63,599 bases of DNA, filler included, from Folioceros fuciformis (GCA_049999805.1; 15 parts of 15 records of this genome joined end to end with filler, not necessarily neighbours in it), one strand, 5' to 3'; shown: positions 2,462-63,230, numbered from the whole stretch's first letter. Translations and numbers: made by a program. The notes: generated by a model from the sequence alone, not told the origin.

Positions 2462-3562
2462 ATCCTCGAGGTGGTCACGTGGGGTGGTGCGGGTGTCGGA
2501 GTCGAATCCGCGAGTTCGGAGTGGAAGAGACTCCTCTTCCCTTAGCCTCAATACCTCACCATTCCTCAACGTTAATAGGAGCCTAGGAGGGGCATCGCTG
2601 AGAAAGAAGACTGAAGAACCGGAGAAAGGAGAGCGCGAGAGTGAGCGTGTGTGAGAAGGAGGAGGAGCGAGTGGCCGAGTAGTGGGTAAGAGCGAATGCA
2701 AAAAGGAAGCCAAAAGGAGTGGAAGCAGGAAGTGAAGCGGAGTGGAAGTGATTCGACGATTGTTAAGACGGGTAGAATGTATACAGAGAACTGGTGAGTG
2801 GGGTAAGACAGAACAAAGTCGGGGAAACCCTGGACGCGAGGAGAGTAATGTGTGTGGGGTGCAATGAGACGTGGTGTGTATGTGTGACTGGTCGCGATGA
2901 GACTGGAGAGGTTGTGAAGAAGCTGAATTGAGACCGTAGGGGGTGTATCTAAGGTGTGAGATCAAGCGGGTGGAAGGCGTCCAACAGATTGCTGCTGTTC
3001 ATGTGTGCGTGCGCTTGTTCCTAAGGTGAGTGAGGCAGTTTTGTGGTGAACCAAGGAAGGGAAGCGCAAAAGGGGATGTGCGGGCAGGAGGTAATCAGTC
3101 GGGTAGGAACGACCCGGAGGGAGAGAGGGAACTGAGAGAGAGAGAGAGAGAGAGGGAGTGGGGCCCAAGAGCGGTAGACCGTCAGGCGTCCGTCGCCCGA
3201 AAGGCGACGAAGGTAGCCCGAAAAGCGACGGAGGTAGTCCAAGGGGCGACGGTAGTAGTCCATTGGGGAACGGAGGGTAGCCCGGTGGGCAACCAAGAGT
3301 AGTCCAGGGGGAGGTAGTCCCTGGGGCGACTAGGTGGTTGAGGGGTCGTCTGGTGGAAGAAGTAAGGGGGCTTGGTAAGGTCTGAGCACTGGACGTGTGT
3401 GTGTGGGTCAGTCGAGCAGTCGAGCTTTAGGTGTTAATTGACGTTAGAAGCTAACCTCTGTAGTTTAACACAAATCATTCCCTTGGGATCGAATCCCAGA
3501 GCTACAACGACATAGAGGGCTTGTGTGGACCTCGCGGTACCCCCGGTTACCATATTTTAACA
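2462..3562 (+). mobile_element. LTR-like fragment with (GA)n tract and GGCGACGG(A)GGTAG(T/C)CC subrepeats
   Basis: Subrepeats at 3185-3330 resemble those in LTRs at 46140-46210 (minus) and 63480-63550. Ends ...TTTTAACA. Confidence 0.45.
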
Positions 3563-3779: not shown

Positions 3780-4971
3780 GGGCTTGTTATCTTAACAAGT
3801 CAAGGCCTTGCAGAGTTGCATTTAGAGATCTTGGGGTGTATAATTAAGAAGGTACTGCTGGACCCTAGTTTTGGGGTCAACATCATGACGGAGGATACAA
3901 CCCGGAAGCTGGGGCTGGAAAAACACCTATGGAAACCAAGGGTTACACTTCTGCAGAAGACACGGCTGGAGGGGAGGATGAGGAAGAGAGGTTCCCATTC
4001 GCCCACATTTCTTGGTCGAATGAGGAAAGGAACTACCAGAGGAACATCCCCCACCCGGTGAGTTGCTATGGCGTGACAATTGACTGCACTGTTGCAAAAG
4101 GACTACCGAGGTAGCTGAAGGAGGAACGCCAGTCGTGAAAAGTGGTGGGGTGGATGCTGAGGATGCTGAGGTAGTAGTTGAATAGGGGGGCAGACCACCA
4201 GACCAAGACTCTGAAGAGCTTGAAGAAGGCAGCAAACATGTGAACGCTGATTTTATCTCACGGCTGAAGACGGAGGAGGTGACTTGTGATAAGGAGGAGG
4301 ATTTTTCCGATGAAGCTCTATTCGCAGCAGAGCTAGAGGAGGAAGTGGCTGCACCGACTGTGAAGATAACGAGCAATGGCAGTGCAGCAGGAAATGAGAA
4401 GGGGAGACCAGCCAGGCCTACTTACAGTGAAACATATGAGTTTGTGGAGTTGGGGGGCAGTCCCTCAGATCTTTGGAAGCAACAGCAACATGCCCTCGTG
4501 CACTATGCACAACCATTTATTCATCACGGGGACAACATGTATCAGGTGGAGCCGAGCGGAGGTGACGGGATGTGGGTGACGGAGGCACAAATCCTATAGG
4601 TGCTGATTGGATTACACGAAGGAGAGGAGCCCGACCACATGATTGTTGAGGGGAGTCAGCTGGACAAACTGGTCAGCCTGGTGAGACACATAAGAGATAG
4701 AGGACAAGCACTGGCTGTCATGCAGGAGGTACACGCAAAAAGGAAAGCATGGCATGACAATCGGTTGTGGAAACAAGAGTGGGTGGAACCAGGGGACTTG
4801 CCACTGCTATATGACAACAGATACATGCATTTTCCAGGCAAGCTTAGAGAATGCATTCATTCGGTTGCAGCAATTGGATGGGCAGCCACTGCCAACCAGG
4901 GTCAAAGGTTGGCGAGTGAGGAAGTATTATGCTGAGGTTGGCGAGGACGCCAACAAGTGAGAAGGGGAGTA
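3780..4971 (+). mobile_element. Internally deleted non-chromoviral Ty3/gypsy remnant (protease remnant, integrase C-terminus, PPT)
   Basis: KVLLDPSFGVNIMT is protease-like. RKAWHD..VEPGDLPLLYDNRYMHFPGKL and RVKGWRVRKYY are integrase-tail motifs. PPT GAGAAGGGGAGTA at 4959-4971. Confidence 0.75.
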
Positions 4972-5177
4972 TGTAGAGGGAAAAAATATTCGCGAACCCC
5001 TTTTAGAGTGACAGATTTGGTGGATTTTGGTTTTTTGTGTGAGGTGAAGGAGAAAGTGGCTTGGGTTGAGAATAAAACCGGGGTATTTATACCCAAAGTC
5101 TCCTTGGGCCATGGTACTTTGGGCGAATCAGTGGCCAGACCAAGTGTCTGGGGGTGGCTGGTTGTCCTTGGCCTTTG
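4972..5177 (+). mobile_element. Gypsy 3' LTR start (TGTAGAGGGAAAA family)
   Basis: TG start directly after PPT. The same start recurs at 21429, 40225 and 46523 (minus), with relatives at 9028 (minus) and 63231. Confidence 0.8.
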
Positions 5178-10956: not shown

Positions 10957-11899
10957 NNNNNNNNNNNNNNNNNNNNNNNNNNNNNNNNNNNNNNNNNNNN
11001 TTAATTAATTAANNNNNNNNNNNNNNNNNNNNNNNNNNNNNNNNNNNNNNNNNNNNAAGCCCGCACCAGAATCGCTGACGTCAGTCATGGCCGCCACGCT
11101 AAACCCTGGAGATGGAGATGGAAGCCGCTAGTCATCGAAGTCGCACCAAGGGAGAGTGCCTACCGCTATCTTAGAAACTCAATTGCTTTTGTTGTTCCAG
11201 CCGTATTTGGGCTCAAGAGTTGTAAGGATTGATGTTCTTCGTATCTCGCTGCAGCACCTGGTGTGATTTACCTGACTCCAAGCTGCCTATCATAGGCAGC
11301 CAAGTCAATAGCCAATCAAGTTCTCAAGCCAATCAAGCCTGTCATAGTCAATCAAGTTCTTCCAACAAAAACGTCTAGAAATTTGCGTGTGAGTAGATTC
11401 CATGTCACTTCGACAACTAGCTGCAAGCTCTGAGTGCAACTCGGCTTAGAGGAGGTGGTGACGCACCTACAACAAGGCGCCATCCTCCCCGTCTTGCGAG
11501 CCACCAACTGCAACGGTGACTTAACAAGTTTAGGATTACCAACCTTCCAGGGCTCATAGCGCCCGCATTACACATTTTTTGCCATGAATTCTTATACCAT
11601 TCGACTCGCCTTGTCAAGGCAAGCAATTTGGTATGCTTTTTGTGCGATTTGGAGCTCTATCCAGGGACTGACTGCATTTGAAAGTTTCGGACAATAGGGT
11701 TTTGCTCTTGCTGCATTTGTTTTTGATTTTCGATCTGGCATCGCGAGTGAGCGAGGCCGCGTGCTACAATCTTCACATGTGAGCTAGAGTTTTTCTGTGC
11801 TGTGTTCCTAAATCCTATGGCAGACATGGGGAATTGTGGGTGTTGCAGCATGATCAGATCTAGAGTAGTTGTGCTTTCTGTTTTGTGTTGGGGAGGCAT

Positions 11900-13786
11900 C
11901 TAGGGTTCTCTAACATGTGTGCTTGCATGCCACCTCTTGTTGAGAATTGGTCGTTTGTGTCCGAGTTGTTGCATGGGTTATGCAACCTGAGGAGCTTGAA
12001 GGCAGCCCACGTTATCATCTGCGATCGAGGAACGTCCCTGCTAGGGTTACACCGGAGCGTGGACGAGCTAGGAGGAGGAGAGCTGCACGTCAGCGACGTT
12101 TGTCTTGGGAGGAAGAGGTCCAAGAGGACCATCAAGCTGGGCCAAGTGCTGTAGGCCAGCAGCAACCAGAGATCAAGAGTTGGTCTCCGTTTGTGGGCTG
12201 GACAGCCACAGCTGCCCCCACAGTTCCTTTGGGAAGCCAAGGAGCTGGTTTCAATTGTCCAGTAGTCATAATTGCAAGGTTAGGGACTCAAGGTCGGGCA
12301 TACCTCTCTGAGGATCCAGATACTAGATCCATGGAGGGAGGACCACCTTACAAGCAGGAGAGATTCTCCAGGAGACCAGGGACATAGACTTTGCGGGATT
12401 TCAGACTGCACCTCAATGCTGTCATCAGTCGGGTAAAATTCAAGCATGCTGAAGCTTACAACCATTTGTATATGTTCGAGCAGCTTTCAAGTTATCTGAC
12501 AGATGAAGCTTTGGACCTTTATGAGCTGCATCAGGCTGAGCTCACAGCCATGGTGTCCACGCCTAATACAAGGTTCCAGGAGGCTCTTCAGCTGGCTTAC
12601 AACGCCAAGCTGGCTGCAGCCATTCAGGTTCATCAGCAAGCCATTGTTGCAACCACGGTGGCACCAACACTACCACCCCCAACGGCTGTGACTCTTACAC
12701 CAAATGAAAGGATATTAGCCACTGTGGGCATACCCGATGAGTTGCAGGTTCCTAAGTATGCCAACCTCGTCGAAGAATTCATGGGCATTCTAGAGAAAGC
12801 TTCCCATTGAAGACTCCGGAGAAAATTGCAAAGCTGGCATCTTTTGCTAGGAAGAAGGGAGAAACCGTGCAGATGGCGTTCCGTAGACTGCAGAAGCTAC
12901 GTGAGGGCACAGGGATGCTAACGAACCAGGAGGTAGCGGAGAAATTCCTAATAGCCTTGGAAGGAGACCCACTCTTTCACTTTCAGCTCATCACAGCGGT
13001 GGTGGATAAATATGGTGATAGGTATACCTTGGAGCAAGTACATGAAGAAGCTGAACGTAGGGAGATCGCTTTCTCTGCATATGTTCACGACACTCCAAGG
13101 CATTTACTCATTACCAGTCTATGTTCTCCACAAAGGGGTCTACTGCAATAGGTTCATGGGCCAAGTCACAGCAGGCCAACTGTCAAGGCTGGAGTAGCTG
13201 CAGCTACAGTTGCTTCTTCGTGCAACTACTATGGCAGTTCTAAGCATATGAGCCCTGCCTACAAATGCCCACCGGAAGACTTGTACTGTACACATTGTCA
13301 CAAGAATGGACATGTGGTCACAATATGTTTTCAAAAGCATCTAGAGAGAAGATCTCAGAAAAATGCAAGCAGTGGGACAGGGACTACAGCAGTTGATGCT
13401 GGAGGTACAGGTACCACAGAAGCTGATATTAGTGTTGGGGTCTCACGCCGCCGACAGCAAAGGGACAAGGCCAAAGCTAGGGCTGCATCCAATGCAGAGA
13501 AGGTCTTCTCTGTTGCAACGTTATCTTCACAGCTAGGCGTGGTTACAGCCAGTCTCAGTAGTGGAGCAACCTCACCCAAACCAGCCAGTGTTGCTGAACT
13601 GGTTAGAGATAAGGAGGAGGATTACGGCTCACCACATCAGGTGTGTGTCGCCAACGGGATGGAGGCTGAGATGGCAACTACTGAGTTGCCACAAACATGG
13701 GTAGGGCAACATTTATACCCACCAGTGTTGGAGACAGCAGCAGGGCCAGTCACTCGGCAGCGAGGAGTGAGGGCGGTCATGCCCCA
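11900..13786 (+). mobile_element. Ty3/gypsy gag region, degenerate
   Basis: Capsid-like segments (FEQLSSYLTDEALDLYE; ARKKGETVQMAFRRL) and CCHC knuckle CTHCHKNGHVVTIC, split by stops and frameshifts. Confidence 0.7.
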
Positions 13787-14191: not shown

Positions 14192-15715
14192 ACAAGGCCT
14201 TAACAGATGCATGCAAAGAAGCTGAGTGGGAGCGCCAATTCCTGGATTCTGTACAACAAACACAAGTTGGATCAACTCAGCTGAAATGTGACAACATGTC
14301 TGCTATTGCCCTTGTGTCCAACCCCCAGTTTCATGCTCGAACAAAGCACATCGAATTATACCATCACTATTTAAGAGATGTGGCTGAGAGAGGACTGGTT
14401 AAAGTTGAATATGTGAACACTGAAGATAACACAGCTGATCTCCTAACAAAAGGACTACCAAAGATCAAACATTATAAACATAGTGTAGCATGTGGGCTGC
14501 GTGCATTTACAGTCACTAGAAAAACTGTCTAAGACTTGTGCTGTAAGCTCAGCAGTGAGATCACACAAAAAAAGAGGAAGAGAACTAGGAGCCTACAAGT
14601 GCTAAGCCAGACTTTCTACTCAGTTAAAGCCTGATTAGTGTTGTTGGCCAAAAAAAAGAAACAAAAAAAAAAAACAATGAACTTGGAAAGGAAAAACGTA
14701 GAGGACAGTAGGTGTTGGTGGTTTTTTTTTGAACTCACAGTTTCATGCTGGAGTTGCACATCCAGTTGCTCCAAGACACGCAGCCTGGCTGATTTGAGGA
14801 GGTTCTCAATTTCCTCACACTTCTGCGAGGTTTGGAGCAAGTGAACAATCTGGTTTCGGTCCGCCTGCGTCGGCCACCACTTCTCACTCGATGCTTCAGT
14901 GCTGATGGTCTCCTAACACTCTTCCTCCACAGCGGGCTGGCCTTGGCGCCTCTTTTTCTGCTTAGTCCGCACCATGGAAGCCCTGCAGGTGCTGAGCCTG
15001 AACATGATGAGATGGTGAGCGTGAACCAACAGCACTCCGCGAGACCTGCCAAGACCGAAAGCAAAGGTGATCAGATTGAGAGCAGAGCAAGAACGAGGAC
15101 GGGGTCAGCCTGCGTCGTTCCTCAATCTCTGGATGGCTGGGTTGTGAGCCTTCTGGCATTTCATCAGCCCGCGCTGAACCAGCAACGGGATCGCCCCGCG
15201 CTTGCGAGGCAGCAGGACAAGTCCCACGCCGGATTGCTGGACGGGCGCCTCGCGGCGGCATCGCGATGTCCTGTAGAGGACTCGCGGATCACAAGCTGGC
15301 TTCATGCTCTGTGTGTTATGTGCCGCGGGTGTGTTCTCGTCGTGGGCCGTTCTCGTGTAGTGGCCGCACGTGTGCGAATCGCCGTGGGGATTTCGTGAGT
15401 TGGTTTTCGCATGTGCAAGTTTATGCGGCTTTAATTTCCCGTTGCACGTTCTCTGGGGTTTTTCTGTTCCGTTCCGTTGCGTGACACTGTTCTGTTATGA
15501 AGTTTTCCTAGTGGTTAAGTTTTTTTTTACTTTTAACATGAGAGGGATTCTACCTTTAACCTAAGAGTAGGTTAAGTGGGAGTGTTAATAATAAGGGGTT
15601 ATTTTAGTATAACCTACCTCAGGGTTAATTAACCATAGTTATGAAAAGACACTTTGTATATAATACCTTTTTTTTGGTTGAGTTTAATTAATTGTCATTT
15701 TATGCAACTTGTGCA
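14192..15715 (+). mobile_element. Ty1/copia RNase H end, ~1.04-kb 3' insert, PPT and short LTR
   Basis: CDNMSAIALVSNPQFHARTKHIE..ADLLTK, stop at 14532. PPT AAGTGGGAG 15574-15582. LTR starts TGTTAATAA at 15583; its right end is uncertain. Confidence 0.85.
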
Positions 15716-24289: not shown

Positions 24290-26119
24290 GTACTTGTGTA
24301 TTATACACTATGATGTTTAATGTTTAATAAAAATCAATGGCGGAAACATTGCTTGAATAATAAAACATAAACTCGAACATACAAAATTGTTAATGTGTCG
24401 TTTAACCTAAAACTACTTTATAATTGAAATACGAAACGTTGTGTCTCTAGGTATCTAACCTATATTAAGTTACCAGCTTATCTAATTAGAGTACCATCAA
24501 TTCTGAGCTCGCGCGTGCCTGTTTTACATGCTGGTGCCGAGAATTGGCCAAGATTGCTACTCCCATTGAATCTCTGCAGGCTTCTGAGGATATTGCTGCA
24601 AAATCCAGTAGATTGTTGATCCTTCTTGCCCTGTGATGACAACGCTGTTGTAGTGCGGCTTGTTCCTCAACCAGCTATTGTAATCAAGCGGATTCATCCG
24701 CTGTAGGATGGAGGAAGGACATGATCTTGTCTCTATTGTCACCTGCTGCCCAAGGGATCTATCTTTGTTCAAGGGCTGCTCACTAGGGGAAACATGTATG
24801 ATCTAGGCAATCCAAGAGCGTAGTACTGCCAAGAGATGAGTTCTAGCATATAGTCTGCACACTTTTGTTGTGTTTTGCTATGAACTGAGTTGGAAATTTA
24901 CCGAGTGCTGACTTGTGTGTGTGCCTTATTTTACAGGAGCTATGAAGTGATACAATCGCCATCATATCTGGATTACGATGTAGAAGCTTGAGATAGACCT
25001 CAATGAAGATGAGTTGTACCAAGTTGAGTTAGAAAGTGACGACGAAGAAGACACTGTCTACTTATCCACTAACACATGTGACTTTGAATATGTTGAAGCT
25101 AATTGACTTAGCTTTACCTCCACTACCGGGATAGCTGGTGAAATTGCTCATCATTTAGTCACTTGATTTGCTGAATAGTCCACCACGCTGAGATTTTCCT
25201 TATGAGTGTGGTGTTTCTCCTTTGAGAGTGGTTTAGTCAGCAAGTCAGCTGAGTTCTCGTCTGTCTTACAGTATTCTAGCTTGATCTCCTTGTTACTAAC
25301 TTTGTCCCTTATAAAATGGTGGTGCACTTCCACATGTTTGGTCCGTGTATGATATATAGGGTTTCTAGCAAAAGCCAACGCTGATTGGTTATTACATAAA
25401 AGGAGAGAAGGTTCAGACTGAGGCTGCTGAAGATCCTTAAGTAATCTTCTTAACCAGATAGCTTCTTTAGTTGCTTGTGTCAATGCTTAGTATTCAGCCT
25501 CCGTTGATGATAGTGAGACTGAGGTTTGCTTTTTACTCAACCAGGTGACCATTCCTCTAGCCAACTTGAAACAATATGCGGAAATTGATTTTCTTGTATC
25601 AGGGTTAGCAGCTCAATCCACATCGCAGTAACCAAGTAGGCTGAGCTTTTCTCCTTCCTTCCTTCTGTAGTAGATTATGCCAGGGCTAGCAGTTGCTTTT
25701 AGGTACCTTAATATTCTTTTAACAACTGACCAATGTATTGGTCTAGGATTGCTAAGAAACTATGCCACTGCACTCACTAGCTGCGAAATATCACATCTAC
25801 AATTATTTGAGAAGTAATTTAAAGAGCCTACCACTTGGCTATAAGGTACGCTAAGCATTAGTTTGATTTCTTCTTCAGTCCAAGGGGACTATTCTTTGCT
25901 GAGTTTAATTCGAGTGGCCATAGGTGTACTAGCAGGCTTAGCATCAGCCATATTGTATCTTGTTAGCATTGTTTTTATCTAAGTTTCTTGATGTATAGTT
26001 ACAATGCCTGCATTTCTATCATGCTGAAAGTGTGTGCCTAAACACCAATGTAACTCACCTAGGTCATACATTTTGAACTCTTGTGAAAGCATGTGATTAA
26101 CTCTCATCAATAGAGGCAT
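24290..26119 (-). mobile_element. Ty1/copia RT end and RNase H, with ~0.85-kb 3' insert
   Basis: FKMYDLGELHWCLG; KEAIWLRRLL..CNNQSALAFARNPIYHTRTKHVE..ADLLTK, stop at 25151. PPT position (~24280-24290) is tentative. Confidence 0.8.
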
Positions 26120-28314
26120 TGTTAAGAAATTACATGTAGATGTAGATTTATTATAAAAATAACATTGTATATATTCAAGAAAAGAGAGTAAGTAAAACAT
26201 TGAAATTTAAACTTAACTATTCATGAATGGGTGTGACTATTCATAACAGTGGTAACCCTAGCAAAGAGGTAAGCCATTTTAAACTATACACACAATATGA
26301 AACTAGATATAATATAACCCTAATCTCATTATGCCAACATCAATACTCCTTCACTCCCACTTGTTGGATTATGACGATTCAGACGTCTCCTCTTCGCCTT
26401 CTCTAACTTGGGTCGAATGTGAGATTGTGAGTTGAGCTGAGTTGAAAGCTTTGCTGTGTGTATGTATTGGGTTGAGCCGACACCTTTGCCTTTAAAGAAA
26501 CGTGATGGAGCATATATGTACAAACTTGGGCAGCAGGTGCGTTGCGACCCTTACAGCATCCCTCTTCACTTCAAGTCCTTTATTTGTGAGCTGTTGGGGC
26601 GTAGGATCTCTAAGCTCAAGATGTCGTCCTCAGCTACTGATTCCCCTCTTGCAAAGCAACGCGTCTGCCATCGTGACAATCTAGGGCGGTTTGTGAGCAA
26701 ACCGACTAGAACAGCCGTCTCCTCTCAATAGCAAGGACCAGCAAAGATGCCTGCTCCTCGTACTCAAGGTGGCAGCAGCGGAAGGCGTTCACGAGGAAGG
26801 CCACATGGCACCACCAAAGCTTTTCTTGATCAGCGGCGCTCATCAGAGGCTACAGCCTGTAAGACAAAGGTTGGCGCTGCGTGTAAGGCAGCTCCCTGCA
26901 AGATGGCTACCCCTAAAGAGAAGTCTCTTTCAAGGGATCATTGTGACAAGCTCCGCTTCAAAGCTGGTGAGTTTGCGTATGCTGATTCTGACTATAAGCC
27001 TGCTGTGCCAATAAGATTTCCAGTTCCAACACACTCTGATGAGGAAACCAAGATTGTGAGCCTTGGTTCTTTTGCTATTCCTTGTACCCCTCTGTGATAT
27101 AAGTGCCCTTACACCCACCTGAAGATGGTGCGAGTGAGGATAGAACACTGCCGCGAGTTTGAGTGCCATGTGGTTAGCTTTTATAGTAAGTGTGCCTTGT
27201 CTACTGTTTATGCCAGCATCCCCGTTGCTTTCTTCTCATAGTTCCCTAATAAGCTCCCACTTGCCCTGCAAGATTTAAATTAAGGTTGGAGGAAGAGCAC
27301 AACCTTGAGACTGAGGAGAGGATCTCTTACATGGAGCGTAGGAAGAGAAACTCTCCAAGATCGGATGAGAGCTTCACCACTCCTTCTGAACATGTCCTTG
27401 ATTCCTCTGAGCTTGATTCCTTTGGCAGTCGTGCAAGTGTGGCTGTAAATAGTGTGGAAGAAAACAGCGTAGACTAGGGATATGACTAGTAGTTTGGGTC
27501 ACTAAACTGCAAGACTGAGGAAGTCACTTGGCTTCCCCATTCTAAGACATTTCAAGTGCCTCTCGTGCAGCTCCCTACCTAGGGCTTTTGTCATAATGTC
27601 TGCTGGATTTTCTATTGTTGGCACATACTCGAGTATAACCTGTCCACTCTTGATCAAATCTCTGATGAAATGATACTCCACCTCAATGTGTTTTGTCCGT
27701 GAGTGATGCACAGGGTTTTGCGCAAGGTTTATAGAACCCTGACTGTCTGTTTTGATCACTGTGCAGGTGGGGAGAGGTAGTCCGAGTTCACTGAAGAGCA
27801 GCTTGCACCAAGCAATTTCTTCAAAAGCGGTTGTGAGGACACGGTACTCTGCTTCTATGCTTGAAAGAGCAACCGTTGGTTGCTTCTTGCTGGACCAACA
27901 GATTGGTCCCCCAGCAAACATGACGATATATCCAGAGACAAATCTTCTACTATCTATGTCACCAGCGTAGTTTGAATCAGTATATACATCTAGTTCAAGG
28001 GTGGCATCAGGTTTGTGTTTGTAAACGATTCCATAATGTGCTGTACCCTTTAAGTATTGAAATACCCTTTTAACACAAGTCTAGTGCTCCTGTGCAAGGT
28101 TTTCTAAGTATTGTGAAACCACACTTGTGGAATATGCCACTTCAGGACGAGCAGTGTTTGCTGCATATATGAGCTTTCCTATTGCCTTGCGGTAAGGGAT
28201 AGGAAGCATTTTGTCCTTTTCAGCTTGCGTTTGTGGACTCATGGATTTGCTGAGCTTAAGTCCACTTGGTAATGGTGTGACTGCAGGCTTCGCATCCTTG
28301 AGTCCAAGCTGGTC
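26120..28314 (-). mobile_element. Ty1/copia RT end and RNase H, ~1.14-kb 3' insert, PPT (26345-26362) and AT-rich LTR sequence
   Basis: WSSKKQPTVALSSIEAEY..DSQGSINLAQNPVHHSRTKHIE..ADIMTK, stop at 27502. PPT AAGTGGGAGTGAAGGAG. Confidence 0.85.
26621..27477 (+). pseudogene. Putative spliced antisense accessory gene inside the copia 3' insert (exons 26621-27185 and 27242-27477; 266 codons, 4 premature stops)
   Basis: GTAAGT...TTCTTCTCATAG intron joins two ORF-track frames in phase. All four stops (TAG, TGA, TAA, TAA) are one C>T change from sense codons. Confidence 0.55.
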
Positions 28315-29624
28315 TGTGCTATCAAGCAGGTAAAGCGGAGCAAGATGCTAGATTGAGCTATGATAATTGAATTGCTTAATTGAGAACGTTGTACATATAG
28401 TATCTGGGATGCGGTTGTAACCGCGGTACTGTCGAGTGCTAGCATAACTGGCAGAACTGCTCTTCAGCAACTAAAACATTTATCTACCTATGCACGAAAC
28501 CTGCCCTAATAACTCTTGGGTACTAAAGCCCAATCCGTGGCGCCAGAGTTTCTACTCCAACACTCCCCCTCACTGCGGATTCCAGCTTGCTGTGATGGCG
28601 TCGATCTCCCACACGTGTCTCAACCTCGTCCTCGATCTTCCAGGTGCAGAGGTGGAAGGTCGAAGTAGCAGAAGCAGGTTGCTGGCAGTGGTGGAGCAGA
28701 GTCGTGTTGTCGGAACTATGGACCTCCCCCTTTCTGTGCACTGGCAGCTGCGAAGGGAATGCTCAGATAAAATTCTCTGCTCACTAGTCCGATGCCTGAA
28801 GTTCAATATGCTTGTCGTGAAGTGGCTAGGGTAGGCCCTTCGTCAACAGATCGATGGTGTTGTCCTTCGTGTTGATGTAACTTAAGGCGACTTGCTTGTT
28901 GGCCACCACGTGGCGAATGAAGTGGTGCTGGATCTCCATGTGCTTGGTCCTTGTGTGCAGCACAGGGTTGAGCGTCATAGCTATGGCTGATAAATTGTCG
29001 CAAAATAGCTATGTGGGCTGATCCTGGTCCTTGCCTATATCATGCAGGAATTGCCTCACCCATAGAATCTCTTTGGTGCCAACGTTGTTGCCGCGTACTC
29101 CGCTTCCATTGATGAGGTACAGATCGTTTGCATCTTCTTACACGCCCATGACACTGTACAGCCATTGATGGCTGTGGAGTAGTTTGTTGTAGATCTTCTC
29201 ATTTCTGGATCTCCAGCCCAATCTGCGTCTGAGAACGAGATTAGAGTGAGCTTGGTAGAGCGGTCACCTCTGTAGGTGAGTCCAAAGGACTTGGTCTTCT
29301 TTAGGTAGTGAAGGATGCGCTTAACGCAGGTCCGGTGAGCCTTCCCGGGGTTCGACAGATATCTGGATACCACGTTCACAGCTTGTGCAACGTCGGGTCT
29401 TGTCCATATTGAGAGGTAAAGTAGGCTACCTACTGCCTCATTGTATGGGATGGCAGACATCTCCATTGATTCTTCAGGTGTATTAGGGCAATCTGCTGCA
29501 GATACCTTCTCTCCTGATGCCACTGGAGTTGATACCGGCTTCGCGTCCTTCATGTTGAATCTCTCCAGCAATTGATCTACATAATGTTCTTGATGGATGA
29601 AGAAAGAGTGGTCCTCCTTGTTGT
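28315..29624 (-). mobile_element. Ty1/copia RT-RNase H end with PPT and 3' LTR (28315-28562), nested in another copia
   Basis: IPYNEAVGSLLYLSIWTRPDVAQAV..FSDADWAGD. Minus-strand GTGAGGGGGAG PPT, then TGTTGGAG...GCACA. Confidence 0.85.
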
Positions 29625-29724
29625 NNNNNNNNNNNNNNNNNNNNNNNNNNNNNNNNNNNNNNNNNNNNTTAATTAATTAANNNNNNNNNNNNNNNNNNNN
29701 NNNNNNNNNNNNNNNNNNNNNNNN

Positions 29725-33752: not shown

Positions 33753-35781
33753 CTAATAGAGATGGAGTGGCAAGCGAGGGGTTGGAACTACTCTAAGGTG
33801 ACGCTTCATTGGCACAGCCAGTCCAAATTGGTCAGACATGTCTACGTCTTCTGGTTTTTGGCCTTGAGGGAGACTCCAGTCGAAGCTGTGGAGCAGCTTA
33901 GCAAGGAAGAAGCTGGATACAGTCATGCCCATAGCAGCGGCAGGGCAGCTCCTCCTGCCGCTTCCAAAAGGGAGCATGTCGAAGTTTTGTCCTCTGATAT
34001 CAATGTCTCTGTACAGGACGGCAGCAAGCCGATGAACGCAGATGCGATACAGAACATCAGACTAGTAAGCAGACTGTGAGCCTTCATGATCTAAGCAAGG
34101 GGAACCATTTGATGTAGATTAGTTAGACCTACGTACCTTTCAATGAATCTCTCCGGCCGGAATTCTAGAGGATTATCCCAGGCGTCTGGGCTTCTGTGAA
34201 TGCTCCATGAGCTGACGAAGACAGTGGTGTTGGCAGGAATGTCGTAGTCCCCAAGCTTGCAGTCCTCTGTGGCGTAATGTGGGATAAGGAAGGGAGCAGG
34301 GGGATGCAGCCGCACAGCCTCCTTCCAAACAGCTTGGAGGTAGGTAAGACGGACTACATCCGATTCCTGCAATTGCCGGTCCCGCCCGACAACCGAGTCC
34401 ATTTCTTGCATTGCCTTCCTCATCATCTGCGGGTTACGGAGCAGGTAGGCAAAAGCCCATTCTGCTACCACGACAGAGGGTTCAACTCCAGCGAGCAGAA
34501 TGTCCTGAGCCATGACAACGAGCATGTGAACTTGGTGTGGTGCGACGAGTCCAGGGAGAGACATTCACAGGTCCGTCAGGATGTAACTCAAGCATAAATG
34601 TAGATTCCAATACCGTGAGCATTCCTTTCATGGCCTGATCTTTGTCGACGCCTTCTTCCCCCGGGAGCGTCAGCAGCACATCAACGAAACTCTGTGGTAT
34701 CCAATTCTCGGTTTGTATCATTCGCTGCCTATGTGTGTCAATGATGTTGGACAGGAAGGAGCTCAGCCTACTTCGGAGCTTGCGCATGGCCCTTACGCGG
34801 AATGTATCCAGAAATCCCAGGAAAGGGATGTGGTCCCCTACCATTGGCATTCCCAGCAGCCTGTTGATGTCAGAGATCACCGACATGTACTCAGCTACCT
34901 CCTGCGGATCTACCTGCGCGCCGCCGCCGTTGACAAACACCACAAGAAAAAAACAATAGACGGATCAAATTTAAGGTGGCAAATTTTGCGCACAATTCAG
35001 TTTTCAATTGGAGCAAAGATCGAAGAGAAGCTGTGGAGCTAACCAGATCGGATTTCTGTCCAATTGGCTCTCCATGCTCGAACGCACAGAAGCGCGTGCT
35101 CATCAGCATCCGGGACAAGTTGTTAATGGCTATAGATGTTCCTAAGTCGAAGACGTTCACCTCTCCCGGACTCTTCTGCAACACAAATCTCATTGCAGCC
35201 GCCAGTTCCTCTTCTCTAAACTGCTGGAACCGTTCAAGTCTCTTGGGTGTAAACAGCTCCGTCACCATGATCTTCCTGACAATCCAACGATATATAGGAC
35301 TGGCATAATCCGGCTCCGTTCTGTTCAACTCAATGTCGCTCGGGTTTGCAAACGTAAGTGATCAGGTGGCCTACCTCACATACTGGTGCCTGGATCCGTA
35401 GGCTTGGAATCCGCATGTTCCTTCTTGGAAAGCCAGGTGTCGGTAGGCTTGAAGAGGAGCCCGAGATGCGAAACTACGGTCTTGCACTTTCAGCACCTCT
35501 CTGGCCATGTCCGCAGATGAAATGACGACAGCCAGGTTGGAACCCAGGCGGAGGGACATGACAGGACCGTGCTCCTTGGCCAACTCCCCAAGGCGAGCAT
35601 GTGGCCTTTCAGTTGCGAAAATGGAAAGGTTTCCTATCACTGGCCATGCTGATGGGCCTGGAGGAAGGCGCCGCTTCCTTTTGCCGCAGCTGCTGGACTG
35701 TTTGCCAGGAAAGCCGGCTAAGAGCACGATAGTCAGGAATCCCACGACGATAGTCAGGCCTACTACAACCATCAAGTCCAT
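33753..35781 (-). CDS. Cytochrome P450, A-type/CYP71-clan-like, 5 exons (35781-35375, 35275-35044, 34913-34614, 34504-34137, 34008-33753), 520 aa
   Basis: N-terminal transmembrane anchor plus LPPGPSAWPVIGNL, KEAVRLHPP (ExxR), FRPERF and heme motif PFGSGRRSCPA. Four GT-AG introns (99, 130, 109, 128 nt) give an uninterrupted 1563-nt frame. Intron 3 lies just before the I-helix, the conserved A-type position. Confidence 0.93.
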
Positions 35782-36849
35782 GACGTAACTGCGTCTTGCT
35801 TCCCAATCCTTTCAACCTTACAGCAAAGCAGGGCTCTTTCCGAACCAGGTAAATCAAAACTTTAGCTGGAGAGCTGCATGGGATGATGCCCTTCGTAGCT
35901 CGGAGTCGGGAACCAGCTCTGCTACATCTTCGGGTGAATGGAGCGGGTTGAACAATATGTGGCATAAGGCCCGAACTTCGTACAACCACGAAGGCCTCGG
36001 GGCTTGTTAGCTGATTCTCATTCACATGGGCGGCAATTACTGAAGTGACACAGTCCTAAATGCATTTGGTTTGCCGAGTTCGGCCACACTGTTCCTTAGA
36101 CGCGGAAAAACACAGAGAAAGTGTTGCGGCATGCTTTCTGCAGCATATACCTTACCGACTGTTAAAGTTGTCCATGCTCTTCCTATCACAGGATTGTGTT
36201 TCGAACCACTCCCATGTGCGAGCCTTGAGAACGTGGTCAGCCAGAGATTCTGTAGGCGCTCCCCCATCGAGATTGCTCGAGCTCAAACGAGGAAGATTAG
36301 AATTCCAGTCCCCGACATTGGCAAGTTGTAAGATGCCTCCTCCGTCGTTAGCTCATGGCCCGTTCACATAGGACCCGGCGCTCGGCCTAGGGACACCGTA
36401 AAGATCGGGCAAATTTCGTCTTTTTCGTTTCTTTAACCAAAAGATAAGATGCGCCCTGCGCAGTATGACCTTGCTGTGGCCGCGCCTTGGTCCCATGACC
36501 CGTGATGTTATGATATTAATATTATATTACTAAAATAATATTAGGAGTATACATGAGACTCGTCTCCTCGTTTTCTCCTTCATTTTCCTTTATATGGCTT
36601 CTGCATATTCAAGTCCGTTTTTTTGTTTTATGATGAGTCCTAGATTTGTTCTACGTCTTGTCCTAGACTTGTGTATGTCTTGGCTTGGTTTGCTTGGGGC
36701 CATGGATCTCATGATATTTAATATTTTATTTGATTAGTTTATAAAATATTATATAGAATACATGGACCTATCTAACTAACTTATGTTTTTGTTATTCCTT
36801 GAGTACTTTCATTGGTTAGAGCTTACTTCTTTTATTTAGATATTGAGCA

Positions 36850-42599: not shown

Positions 42600-44310
42600 C
42601 GCTAGTCAAGCATATCTTCCCATAAGACCTCTATCTCGCTCTCGCTGCCGCCTAACTTCTCTTGTTGCGGCGTGGGTGGGGTCCGCCGAGGGGTCCTTCC
42701 CCCACCGTCTGGCCGCCTGTTGCTGAGGACCATCACCGGTTCTTGCTCCACCCATGCCTGCGCTTCTTCCTCCGTTAGTTCCTCCAAGGCTACCTCCGAA
42801 TAACAAGGAGGCAATCCCCACACCCGGAAGCAGTGGGAGAAGCATTCCCCACGAGTCCTCAGTTATAGGCAATAAGCCCTTGTCCCTCCTATTTCCACAC
42901 GCACATGGACAATCAGGTTAAGCACACGATCCCCGTTCACATAGAGGCCAGGAACATAAGTTTCCTCATCCAGATGCTGTAATACAATCTGGCCTCCTGC
43001 TGCAAATGAGGTGCTTACTCCCTCCTCCCGTGGGCTACCCCAAACTACCTATCTTCTGCTCTCCAAGGGTACTAGGGAATCCTCTGCCCCTCCGGCTGCC
43101 GCTGCTGCCAGCCCCATCCTCCTGGTGCGGGTCGTCATCCCAGCTCTTCCGGTTGCGGGCTCCACGACTGTCGCTGCTTCCTCTACCCTAGTAGGGCTGT
43201 CCTCTACTTGCATGGTCTCCCTCTGACCGGTAGTGGCTTCGGCTACCTCGGTCGCGGACCTGCTACTCTGTTTAGCATTCCCTTTCCCTTTCACCCGGCT
43301 CCGAGCCTCATCCCCTTCTCGTTTATACCGGTCCGCAAGCTTCTGGACCTTCTCCACTGCAGCCGCCTCTTGCTCTTGTGCCCTCAATAGCTCGTGTTGC
43401 ATTTCCTGATTGGCTTTGTGAACCTCCTTGACCTGGGTCAAAAGCAGCTCCTGCTGATCCTTCATGGCCTACATTTCCTCCCAAGCAAGGCGTACTTCCT
43501 CCTGTGCCTGTTCCTTTGCTGCATTCAGGGCTTGTCGAGCTTCCTCCAGTTGCTCCCGACTCCCATCTGCCAAACTCGCCCTCCTCCTTTGGTTCCTCTG
43601 GCTTCCACTTGACCTCCCGAACGGGCTTCCACATGTGTAGAGAAGCAACCACCTCTAACTTTGGCAGACTGTTAGCATAAGAATACATATGAACCAGGAA
43701 GGGTGAGATTAGAGACGGGTGGGGGGTTGGAGAAGTCAGACTCTGTCTTTCCTCATTCAGTCGATCAAAGAAAATTTCCCCCCAGTCGATCCTACTCCCA
43801 TTGACCACTTCGTGCAAGAATAGCAGCATGTGGTCCGATAGGTAGTCTTGCTTCCTATTCTACAAAAAGCACAAGAGACACCTGGCCAGACCCATGAGCT
43901 GGGCAGTTGCTATCTCCTATGCCAGCCAGCTGTTGGCCTCCCTTCCGATTCTAGTTTTGAACAGCACTGTTGATGCCGCCGTGGTGTTGCGCTTCCTCAG
44001 GGACTCGATCACGAGTCCCTCGGCTTCCTCCTGACTCTGCACATACACTGCCCAGACCAGCTCGACGTCCTAGTCTTGGGGTCTCTCCCTGGTCCCTTCC
44101 TCTTTTATCTTATTTCGCAACCGGTGCACGCACTCCTGCACCTGAGCGAGGGTCACATCGTTCCACCTCTTGGCCATGAACCTCAAGCTTAGCTCCTCTA
44201 CCAGCCCTCTGGCCCTAGCCTTCCAATGGTCCATGCTAAGCCAGAGGGCTACCTCAACTTGAGGCATCAACTCCAACGTTGTATCCCTGGACGACGCTGC
44301 CGGTGCCAAG
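42600..44310 (-). pseudogene. Retrotransposon accessory (env-like/extra) ORF remnants with a coiled-coil region
   Basis: LLFLHEVVNGSRIDWGEIFFDRL..LISPFLVHMY and a Q/E-rich coiled coil. Second copy at 18668-18894. Family assignment is inference. Confidence 0.5.
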
Positions 44311-62139: not shown

Positions 62140-63230
62140 GCAAGAGAAAGATATGAAGGGGTAAGCAGTTACAAACGACTGAACTCAATTTTAGGGTTTC
62201 ATGTAATTCAGCTGACAAGTTCAACTGAAAAGTGGGGTTTGCTTTCTAGGGTATGTGAGGCTGAGGAAACGGTTACCAACCGTCTAGTGTCAGCGGAAGC
62301 TGCAGGGGAAACTGGCGGGAAAAGCCTGNNNNNNNNNNNNNNNNNNNNNNNNNNNNNNNNNNNNNNNNNNNNTTAATTAATTAANNNNNNNNNNNNNNNN
62401 NNNNNNNNNNNNNNNNNNNNNNNNNNNNGATAATGATCTTGGATCGAGTAGGTTTGGGTACGGCCTTCAAACTGTTAATGTCTCTAGGTCTCTGGATCCG
62501 TATGCCTTTGCGTCCATCGCTTGGCTGGGTTATTCCCGCACCTCCTCCATCACACGAGGTCTCGGCATTTGCCCTAGACGACAAGCTCTCGGCATCCGCC
62601 CTAGGGTTAGGACTCTAAAGAATGGGGACCTCCCTTAGTGATAAGCTAAGTTGTCTTTTTCATTAGGGTTACAACTCTAAAGAAGAGGCACAAACACGGT
62701 CTGCGCCTAACGGTCGTATTCCATGAAGCCCGTTTGGCGCACTTTTGAATGTACACCATCCAAGTCACATACCCACATTTAAGCTGTTTTTCAAAAAACA
62801 TATTGTTTGGACATGTCGTGGACACCACACATAATAAAAAATGTTTAAATCAACTCAATCCAACTAAGACATAAAGTAGAAGACCGATTAAATTTTGCCT
62901 AAATACCGAATCCTCCTTCGAGTGCGCTGGTCTACCGGCGTACTGAACAATGTGATTCACTAAAAAGAACCTCTGCTATGAATAAAAAACCTTTACCAGT
63001 CACTTTTAAATAAAGGCATATTGTACCACAAACTGCAAGTATTTTCAAATCTTGTCTATATCAAGTCATGTACGTCTTGGATGGCCTCATAATTGACAAC
63101 TATCTCTACATCCTTCAAGCGCTGGCCCTCTGTGTCACCGAAGTCATCTCCTTCCACCTCAAGAACCGAGAAATGAGGATCGTCCACTGTCTCTGGCAAA
63201 AGCGTGCCATTCTCATCCCAAATGGTCATT

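Follow-up and report, generated by a model that had tools for sequence, protein, structure and literature searches.

The subject of this analysis is a putative antisense gene at positions 26621-27477, on the plus strand of a 63,599-nucleotide stretch of Folioceros fuciformis DNA (GCA_049999805.1), where it lies beside the end of the pol gene of a Ty1/copia retrotransposon. The whole stretch, filler included, is referred to as the window; it joins 15 parts of the genome that are not necessarily neighbors, and all positions are counted from its first letter. The closest described systems are the antisense additional open reading frames (ORFs) of the aORF-3R type, which are known from several long terminal repeat (LTR) retrotransposons. 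Grande, RIRE2, and Retand are Ty3/gypsy elements. An aORF-3R lies between pol and the 3′ LTR, and examples occur in Grande (gene23, maize), RIRE2 (rice), Retand (Silene), PvRetro13 (Phaseolus), and the fungal element Boty (PMC7264820; PMC11963269; here and below, a PMC number refers to excerpts of the source). Retand is called 'Gypsy' in the same two reviews (PMC7264820; PMC11963269). The encoded proteins are described there as lacking clear database relatives; the product of Grande gene23 is a nuclear protein, and these ORFs have been proposed to act as DNA-binding regulators (PMC7264820; PMC11963269). Additional ORFs are found in most lineages of LTR retrotransposons (PMC12786077), and their presence beyond one or a few copies is given as the mark of a conserved aORF rather than of transduction (PMC7264820). 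Regulatory antisense transcripts of LTR retrotransposons have been described as well (PMC7264820; PMC12786077). Antisense accessory genes of plant LTR retrotransposons are already known, and the copia example presented here is a modest addition to them.

Two further systems bear on the locus, namely the antisense genes of retroviruses and the introns of LTR retrotransposons. One isoform of HBZ, the antisense gene of human T-cell leukemia virus type 1 (HTLV-1), is spliced. HBZ and its HTLV-2 counterpart APH-2 are antisense genes of the 3′ end that are driven from within or near the 3′ LTR and encode nuclear regulators (PMC11963269). A genuine spliceosomal intron is present in Ogre, a Ty3/gypsy LTR retrotransposon, where it lies in the sense strand, between gag-pro and the reverse transcriptase (RT) ORF, and is spliced from a portion of the transcripts that the element makes (PMC6317226).

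The locus at 26621-27477 is probably a decayed copy of an antisense accessory gene of the aORF-3R type, containing one short intron and borne by a multi-copy Ty1/copia family. The copy in the window is a pseudogene, in which transitions have accumulated and at least three private nonsense changes are present. The parts of the proposed gene and the features next to it are the following:

26621..27185, plus strand: proposed exon 1, with ATG at 26621, an alternative ATG at 26747, stops at 26729 and 27095, and the RGRP motif at 26792-26803
27186..27241, plus strand: proposed intron of 56 nt, phase 1, GTAAGT...CATAG
27242..27477, plus strand: proposed exon 2, encoding an acidic Ser-rich tail, with TAA stops at 27247 and 27250 and a terminal TAG at 27475-27477
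27502..28347, minus strand: 3′ part of copia pol (connection and RNase H region), in the stop-to-stop ORFs 27502-28080 and 28081-28347
26559..26580, minus strand: purine-rich run followed by TG at 26558-26557, a possible polypurine tract with the first bases of the 3′ LTR
26513..26518, plus strand: TATATG, a possible TATA box of the antisense gene, about 105 nt upstream of ATG 26621

This gene model was drawn in an earlier sequence-only reading of the DNA, and its layout was reproduced in full. The intron begins with GTAAGT at 27186 and runs through TTTCTTCTCATAG to 27241, a length of 56 nt with the donor placed after the first base of a codon. Joining the exons gives 565 + 236 = 801 nt, a path that leaves no remainder and stops only at the named places, which are TAG at 26729, TGA at 27095, and TAA at 27247 and 27250. 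All of the peptide pieces quoted in that reading are found in the translations when stops are read as X. The frame lies on the plus strand and pol on the minus strand, confirming the antisense orientation, and the two are placed tail to tail, with the terminal TAG at 27475-27477 lying 24 nt from the pol stop codon at 27504-27502. Measured from the pol stop to the purine run, the spacer is about 0.9 kb long; the frame occupies 93-95% of it, and the ATG at 26621 is 41 nt from the run at 26559-26580. The observation that each internal stop is one C>T change away from a sense codon is correct; it is true of any stop codon and carries no weight.

In its orientation and proposed position within the element, and in encoding a putative protein without database relatives, the locus resembles the aORF-3R genes. 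It differs from them in its carrier, which is a Ty1/copia fragment whose spacer is nearly filled by the frame, whereas the spacers of Retand measure 2.9-6.6 kb (PMC11963269). In addition, Pfam reports no similarity to TRP28 (PF04195) for the antisense protein, and an intron is proposed here, while the word 'intron' is absent from both reviews (PMC7264820; PMC11963269). HBZ and APH-2 share with the locus the antisense placement at the 3′ end, the proposed promoter in or near the 3′ LTR, and the proposed nuclear regulatory role (PMC11963269). They have no sequence relation to it, belong to another host kingdom and another element family, and differ in that expression of HBZ has been shown, whereas the ORF described here is known from sequence. 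Ogre offers the likeness of a spliceosomal intron in an LTR retrotransposon, although its intron is in the sense strand and the one proposed here is antisense (PMC6317226).

The frame is judged to exceed chance because of its codon usage and the comparison with sister contigs. Stop counts by themselves are weak evidence. Over 26441-27477, the exon-1 frame contains six stops in 345 codons, compared with 10 to 28 in the remaining five frames, and the window holds 29 low-stop intervals (248 codons with at most two stops); among the 20 of these sent to Pfam, nine have a family and 11 do not. A GT..AG pair is likewise weak evidence by itself. Among the in-phase GT..AG pairs of 40-200 nt that link both frames, the full GTAAGT donor is found at 27186 alone.

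For codon usage, a model was trained on 13-14 recognized coding pieces of the window, none of which overlaps the antisense frame. Exon 1 scores +0.099 to +0.103 per codon in the proposed frame, with -0.064 and -0.072 in its shifted frames and no more than 0.001 in reverse. Exon 2 scores +0.138 to +0.144 in the proposed frame and is negative in the other five, and the shifted frames of both exons range overall from -0.02 to -0.09. The recognized training pieces themselves score 0.02-0.10 per codon. Null windows with eight or more stops have a mean of -0.027 (standard deviation 0.038), and none of 680 reaches the exon 1 score; the observed score was likewise reached by 0 of 2000 shuffles for exon 1 and 0 of 2000 for exon 2. 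Low-stop frames of spurious appearance score negative, as seen on the minus strand at 2569-3450 (-0.073), 11863-12669 (-0.105), and 14619-15494 (-0.025).

Sister copies of the locus are present in contigs from two DNA runs (X1 and X2) of one sample from the same organism; the differences and gaps reported here are those among the difference rows and pieces listed. Over 27067-27357, one contig (depth 11.4) matches the window letter for letter, so the stops in that interval are not assembly slips, and the run may be the source of the assembly. At a depth of 144-231, contigs spanning 26325-27686 diverge from the window by 5-9%, which suggests a multi-copy family of which the window holds one decayed copy. 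Other contigs, candidates for subfamilies, are 79-89% alike. No further copies were found within the window by blastn (word size 11 or 7) or tblastn. In place of the stop at 26729, five of five X1 contigs and five of five X2 contigs have a sense codon; at 27475 and 27487, the entire depth of X1 and X2 reads sense codons, with another letter at 27476 and 27488. These three stops are confirmed as private to the window copy. Since the sister contigs lack the stops at 27475 and 27487, their frame would continue to a stop at 27490-27492, which leaves 9 nt before the pol stop. In X1, C or G in the contigs is matched by T or A in the window at 75 places (41 + 34), and the opposite exchange is seen at 37 (20 + 17), an excess that fits decay of the window copy by transitions.

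The gaps in the sister contigs fall in a restricted pattern. Over exon 1, four distinct diverged contigs with 34-69 other letters each were found, of which three are gapless and one has 15 gap letters. Exon 2 is gapless in the high-depth contigs, whose gaps lie upstream of the ORF (five letters, at 26428) and within the proposed intron (one letter, at 27206); one of these contigs, followed over 27078-27361, omits the single letter at 27206 and is otherwise gapless. Frameshifts at random positions and the lack of codon-level constraint were named in the sequence-only reading as signs that no gene is present. In the contigs, gaps avoid the exons or total 15 letters; between the window copy and the high-depth contigs, no codon-level constraint was seen, as is expected of a freely decaying copy. 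What stands of the claimed antisense gene is the frame itself, coding-like codon usage in both proposed frames, and sister copies that are open at the three checkable stops; its intron is plausible.

Several features speak for the 56-nt intron, including a donor of full consensus, a pyrimidine-rich tail, a phase that fits two coding-like frames, and the 1-letter length change inside it. Its composition is T22 C15 G11 A8, with 37 pyrimidines among the 56 letters. In the exon-1 frame, the segment 27185-27243 scores 0.008; the other forward frames give -0.085 and -0.147, and one reverse frame gives +0.083 over about 19 codons. An alternative acceptor AG at 27252-27253 is an equally good fit, giving an intron of 68 nt in the same phase and placing both TAA stops within the intron. 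With this acceptor, no stop occurs between 27098 and 27474. The 68-nt intron thus leaves two internal stops to explain, of which 26729 is private to the window copy. It could also be that CTCAT at 27235-27239 serves as the branch site, leaving the AG at 27240-27241 too near to it to function as an acceptor. Without splicing, the frame of the window copy stops at 27239-27241.

The predicted protein, with X at the stops, begins with a basic head that holds one RGRP core, continues into a middle part rich in Cys and His, and ends in an acidic Ser-rich tail. The AT-hook motif is an R-G-R-P core flanked by basic residues. The core in the antisense protein occurs once, within GRRSRGRPHG, in a basic stretch rich in Gly, Arg, and Ser; unlike a clear AT hook, it is a single copy, and a four-residue core can occur by chance, with five such cores among the 127,194 six-frame residues of the window. 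The AT-hook-like motif claimed for the protein is therefore present as an RGRP core and is not matched by the AT_hook profile in Pfam at an expectation value (E) of up to 1. The further suggestion of a resemblance to BAH domains or SH3 barrels was not borne out, as Pfam gave no family at E up to 1, the matches in the PDB were those of chance, none of 1.84 billion representative sequences was similar, and the mean predicted local distance difference test (pLDDT) value was 38.8. Pfam returned nothing for exon 1 at E up to 1. For exon 2, BOP1NT was considered and rejected at 14.9 bits against a cut-off of 29.6. Among PDB sequences, three designed ankyrins matched by chance (E 0.012-0.032), and no stretch passed. 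A nuclear role in binding DNA or chromatin is suggested by the composition of the protein and by analogy with the known aORFs. A fuller AT-hook-like motif, GLGLPKRGRP, is found elsewhere in the window in two short plus-strand frames at about 806 and about 18013. Each of these frames lies within a few hundred bases of a similarly worded His/Met-rich frame, forming one repeated unit.

The DNA of the window is eukaryotic and plant-like in character. Pieces of Ty1/copia elements are dense across it, and many of its long frames yield Pfam matches to copia gag, protease-barrel, integrase, and RVT_2 domains. The pol fragment at 27502-28347 matches no Pfam family, while its relatives are encoded by 168 metagenome stretches, with a top identity of 50%. 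A copia pol-end motif lies at 27502-27699 and recurs at four other pol ends of the window. The carrier can be assigned to Ty1/copia, with RNase H as the last pol domain, a class that is read from the post-RT end of pol alone. As the fragment begins past the RT domain, the element is 5′-truncated and persists as a 3′ fragment of about 2 kb. The minus strand has a succession of three copia pol 3′ ends, at 28826, 27502, and 25151 (interval 25151-28951), which belong to unrelated families, and no LTR pairs were found between them. This region appears to be a patch of truncated or nested copia elements. Sister copies also contain a go-back joint from 26615 to 26563, with seven letters between and a depth of 90.4 in X2; this suggests that about 59 nt next to the purine run, just upstream of ATG 26621, are duplicated in tandem in those copies. 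In the window itself, no tandem repeats were found in 26200-27700.

If the locus is a decayed aORF-3R gene, the intact gene would have been transcribed on the plus strand from a promoter in or adjoining the 3′ LTR. One short intron, of 56 nt or of 68 nt with the alternative acceptor, would be removed from the transcript to yield a product of about 265 residues, with a basic RGRP (AT-hook-like) N-terminus, a Cys/His-rich middle, and an acidic Ser-rich tail. This protein may act in the nucleus on DNA or chromatin and modulate the element's own expression or integration. The intron would be antisense to the genomic RNA of the element and hence copied faithfully in every round of retrotransposition; it could persist in a retroelement because the RNA of the element contains it only in reverse orientation, which does not allow splicing. 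A bolder form of this proposal is that the locus represents an intron-bearing antisense copia gene whose protein family has no relatives, a counterpart of the retroviral antisense regulators that possibly arose de novo in the 3′ spacer. This form is offered tentatively and falls somewhat short of an even chance.

A number of observations weigh against the aORF-3R interpretation. For the gene model, 38 in-phase GT..AG pairs exist in the size range given above. The four introns of the neighboring P450-like gene (33753-35811, minus strand), read by eye, are about 98-130 nt long and all end in CAG; the proposed 56-nt intron is shorter and lacks a CAG acceptor. The LTR boundary is inferred only, and a second LTR copy was sought in the window and none was found. 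The two runs that supply the sister contigs are possibly the assembly's own source. Between the high-depth contigs and the window, a hand count over the listed differences in the ORF gives four silent and nine replacement codons. The count, which sets a decaying copy against the majority rather than testing the family, shows no codon-level constraint; this is expected if the window copy decays freely, yet is not support. For the protein, an exhaustive phmmer search of the 1.84 billion representatives gave 0 matches, and a word-indexed protein search returned none at 136-434 aa. A metagenome-contig scan with the 121-aa open stretch matched 127 patterns, none of which was confirmed, and the 80 distant copia loci reached through the pol fragment hold nothing similar (best E 1.0). 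The language-model recognition of the same 121-aa stretch is 1759, against a value of 2300 that is reached by 91 of 100 known-family proteins, and the Atlas returned no usable match for it. Lastly, the single-sequence AlphaFold2 model, to which the mean pLDDT given above belongs, has a predicted template modeling score of 0.20 and is unreliable.

These points can be arranged into other explanations of the locus. One is that the frame is coding and the gene structure is different, with an unspliced shorter protein, an acceptor at 27252-27253, or an exon 2 that is a separate small ORF. The unspliced frame does end, at 27239, and the acceptor at 27253 keeps the phase with no stop from 27098 to 27474; the abundance of in-phase GT..AG pairs, the possible branch site at CTCAT 27235-27239 near the first AG, and the fact that neither acceptor is CAG, unlike four of four host acceptors, all fit such a change of structure. 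However, exon 2 has the strongest coding score of the locus and has it only in the frame that needs a phase-1 intron, which an unspliced product leaves unexplained, and the 68-nt version refines the two-exon gene rather than opposing it. A different structure is considered unlikely. A second explanation is that no gene exists, and that a chance low-stop run in the non-coding tail of the retrotransposon is combined with chance splice matches. This would agree with the 29 low-stop intervals and the 11 of 20 that have no Pfam family, with the empty homolog searches, the low language-model recognition, and the low-confidence fold, and with replacement changes exceeding silent ones among the differences listed. 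It is at odds with a codon score that is gene-like in exactly the two frames proposed, is reached by none of the null windows or shuffles, and is negative in spurious frames. In addition, three stops are private to the window copy, and the gaps avoid the exons or total 15 letters. Chance alone is regarded as a poor explanation.

The module might also be a captured piece of a host gene, acquired by transduction, or the remnant of an unrelated mobile element that came to lie behind pol and was carried passively. A contig that joins 26403 to 27514 and skips 1110 letters (depth 15.1 in X1 and 18.6 in X2) indicates that some copies or relatives may be without the whole antisense module and the last pol codons, although the joint is known from its two flanks alone. 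Of the metagenome relatives of the pol fragment, the closest (L001, 50% identity) has about 660 nt from the pol stop to the next gag-like ORF and no comparable spacer, and an intron in a gene borne by a retroelement fits capture as genomic DNA. Nevertheless, no homolog from a host gene or transposon was found in the Pfam, protein, metagenome, or PDB searches, and the module is present in the high-depth contigs, beyond one or a few copies, which one review regards as indicating a conserved aORF rather than a transduction (PMC7264820). Capture is considered quite improbable. Even less credence is given to the possibility that the antisense RNA, and not a protein, is what matters, with a plus-strand transcript that pairs with element RNA and feeds silencing while the frame is incidental. 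Regulatory antisense transcripts of LTR retrotransposons have been described (PMC7264820; PMC12786077), and no homolog backs a protein function here, but an RNA role does not explain why codon usage is coding-like in two particular frames or why the gaps fall where they do. Roles for protein and RNA are also not exclusive of one another.

Read as a decayed aORF-3R gene of a copia family, the locus is of interest since accessory antisense genes of plant retrotransposons are widespread, and a compact case would provide a handle on what they do for the element. With about 265 codons, one short intron, a copia spacer of 0.9 kb, and a motif suggestive of DNA binding, it could show how such genes arise and how they survive reverse transcription. 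For annotation, 26621-27477 is to be treated as a pseudogene copy within a truncated copia patch and not as a host gene.

Several other features of the window and its contigs were observed. Contigs from a third run, X3, cover 26300-27700 with many C>T and G>A differences and with loose ends made of T only, and the run looks to be of bisulfite type. If so, the sites that are still C in X3 would be methylated. The window also contains 28 runs of 44 N, arranged as 14 pairs with 12 bases between the members, at intervals of 2.6-10.6 kb. The first pair is at 2362-2461, the last at 62329-62428, and the one nearest to the antisense frame at 29625-29724. At least some of the pairs fall within copia RT regions, and they have the appearance of deliberate masking, not of assembly gaps.

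Other low-stop frames are also present in the window. The minus-strand frame at 14619-15494 is likewise antisense to, and tail to tail with, a copia element, with 292 codons and two stops, and starts 87 nt past a plus-strand copia pol stop (pol ends at 14532); with its codon score of -0.025 and no Pfam match, it is much weaker than the frame at 26621-27477. At 42605-44069 on the minus strand, overlapping low-stop frames encode a Glu/Ala/Arg-rich, coiled-coil-like protein without a Pfam family. Two of the three frames there have positive codon scores (0.043-0.049) and the third, at 43326-44069, scores -0.012; they are possibly a gag or accessory ORF of another element. On the plus strand, the interval 4084-5175 comprises 364 codons with three stops and no Pfam family, and with a codon score of +0.061 it is a coding remnant.

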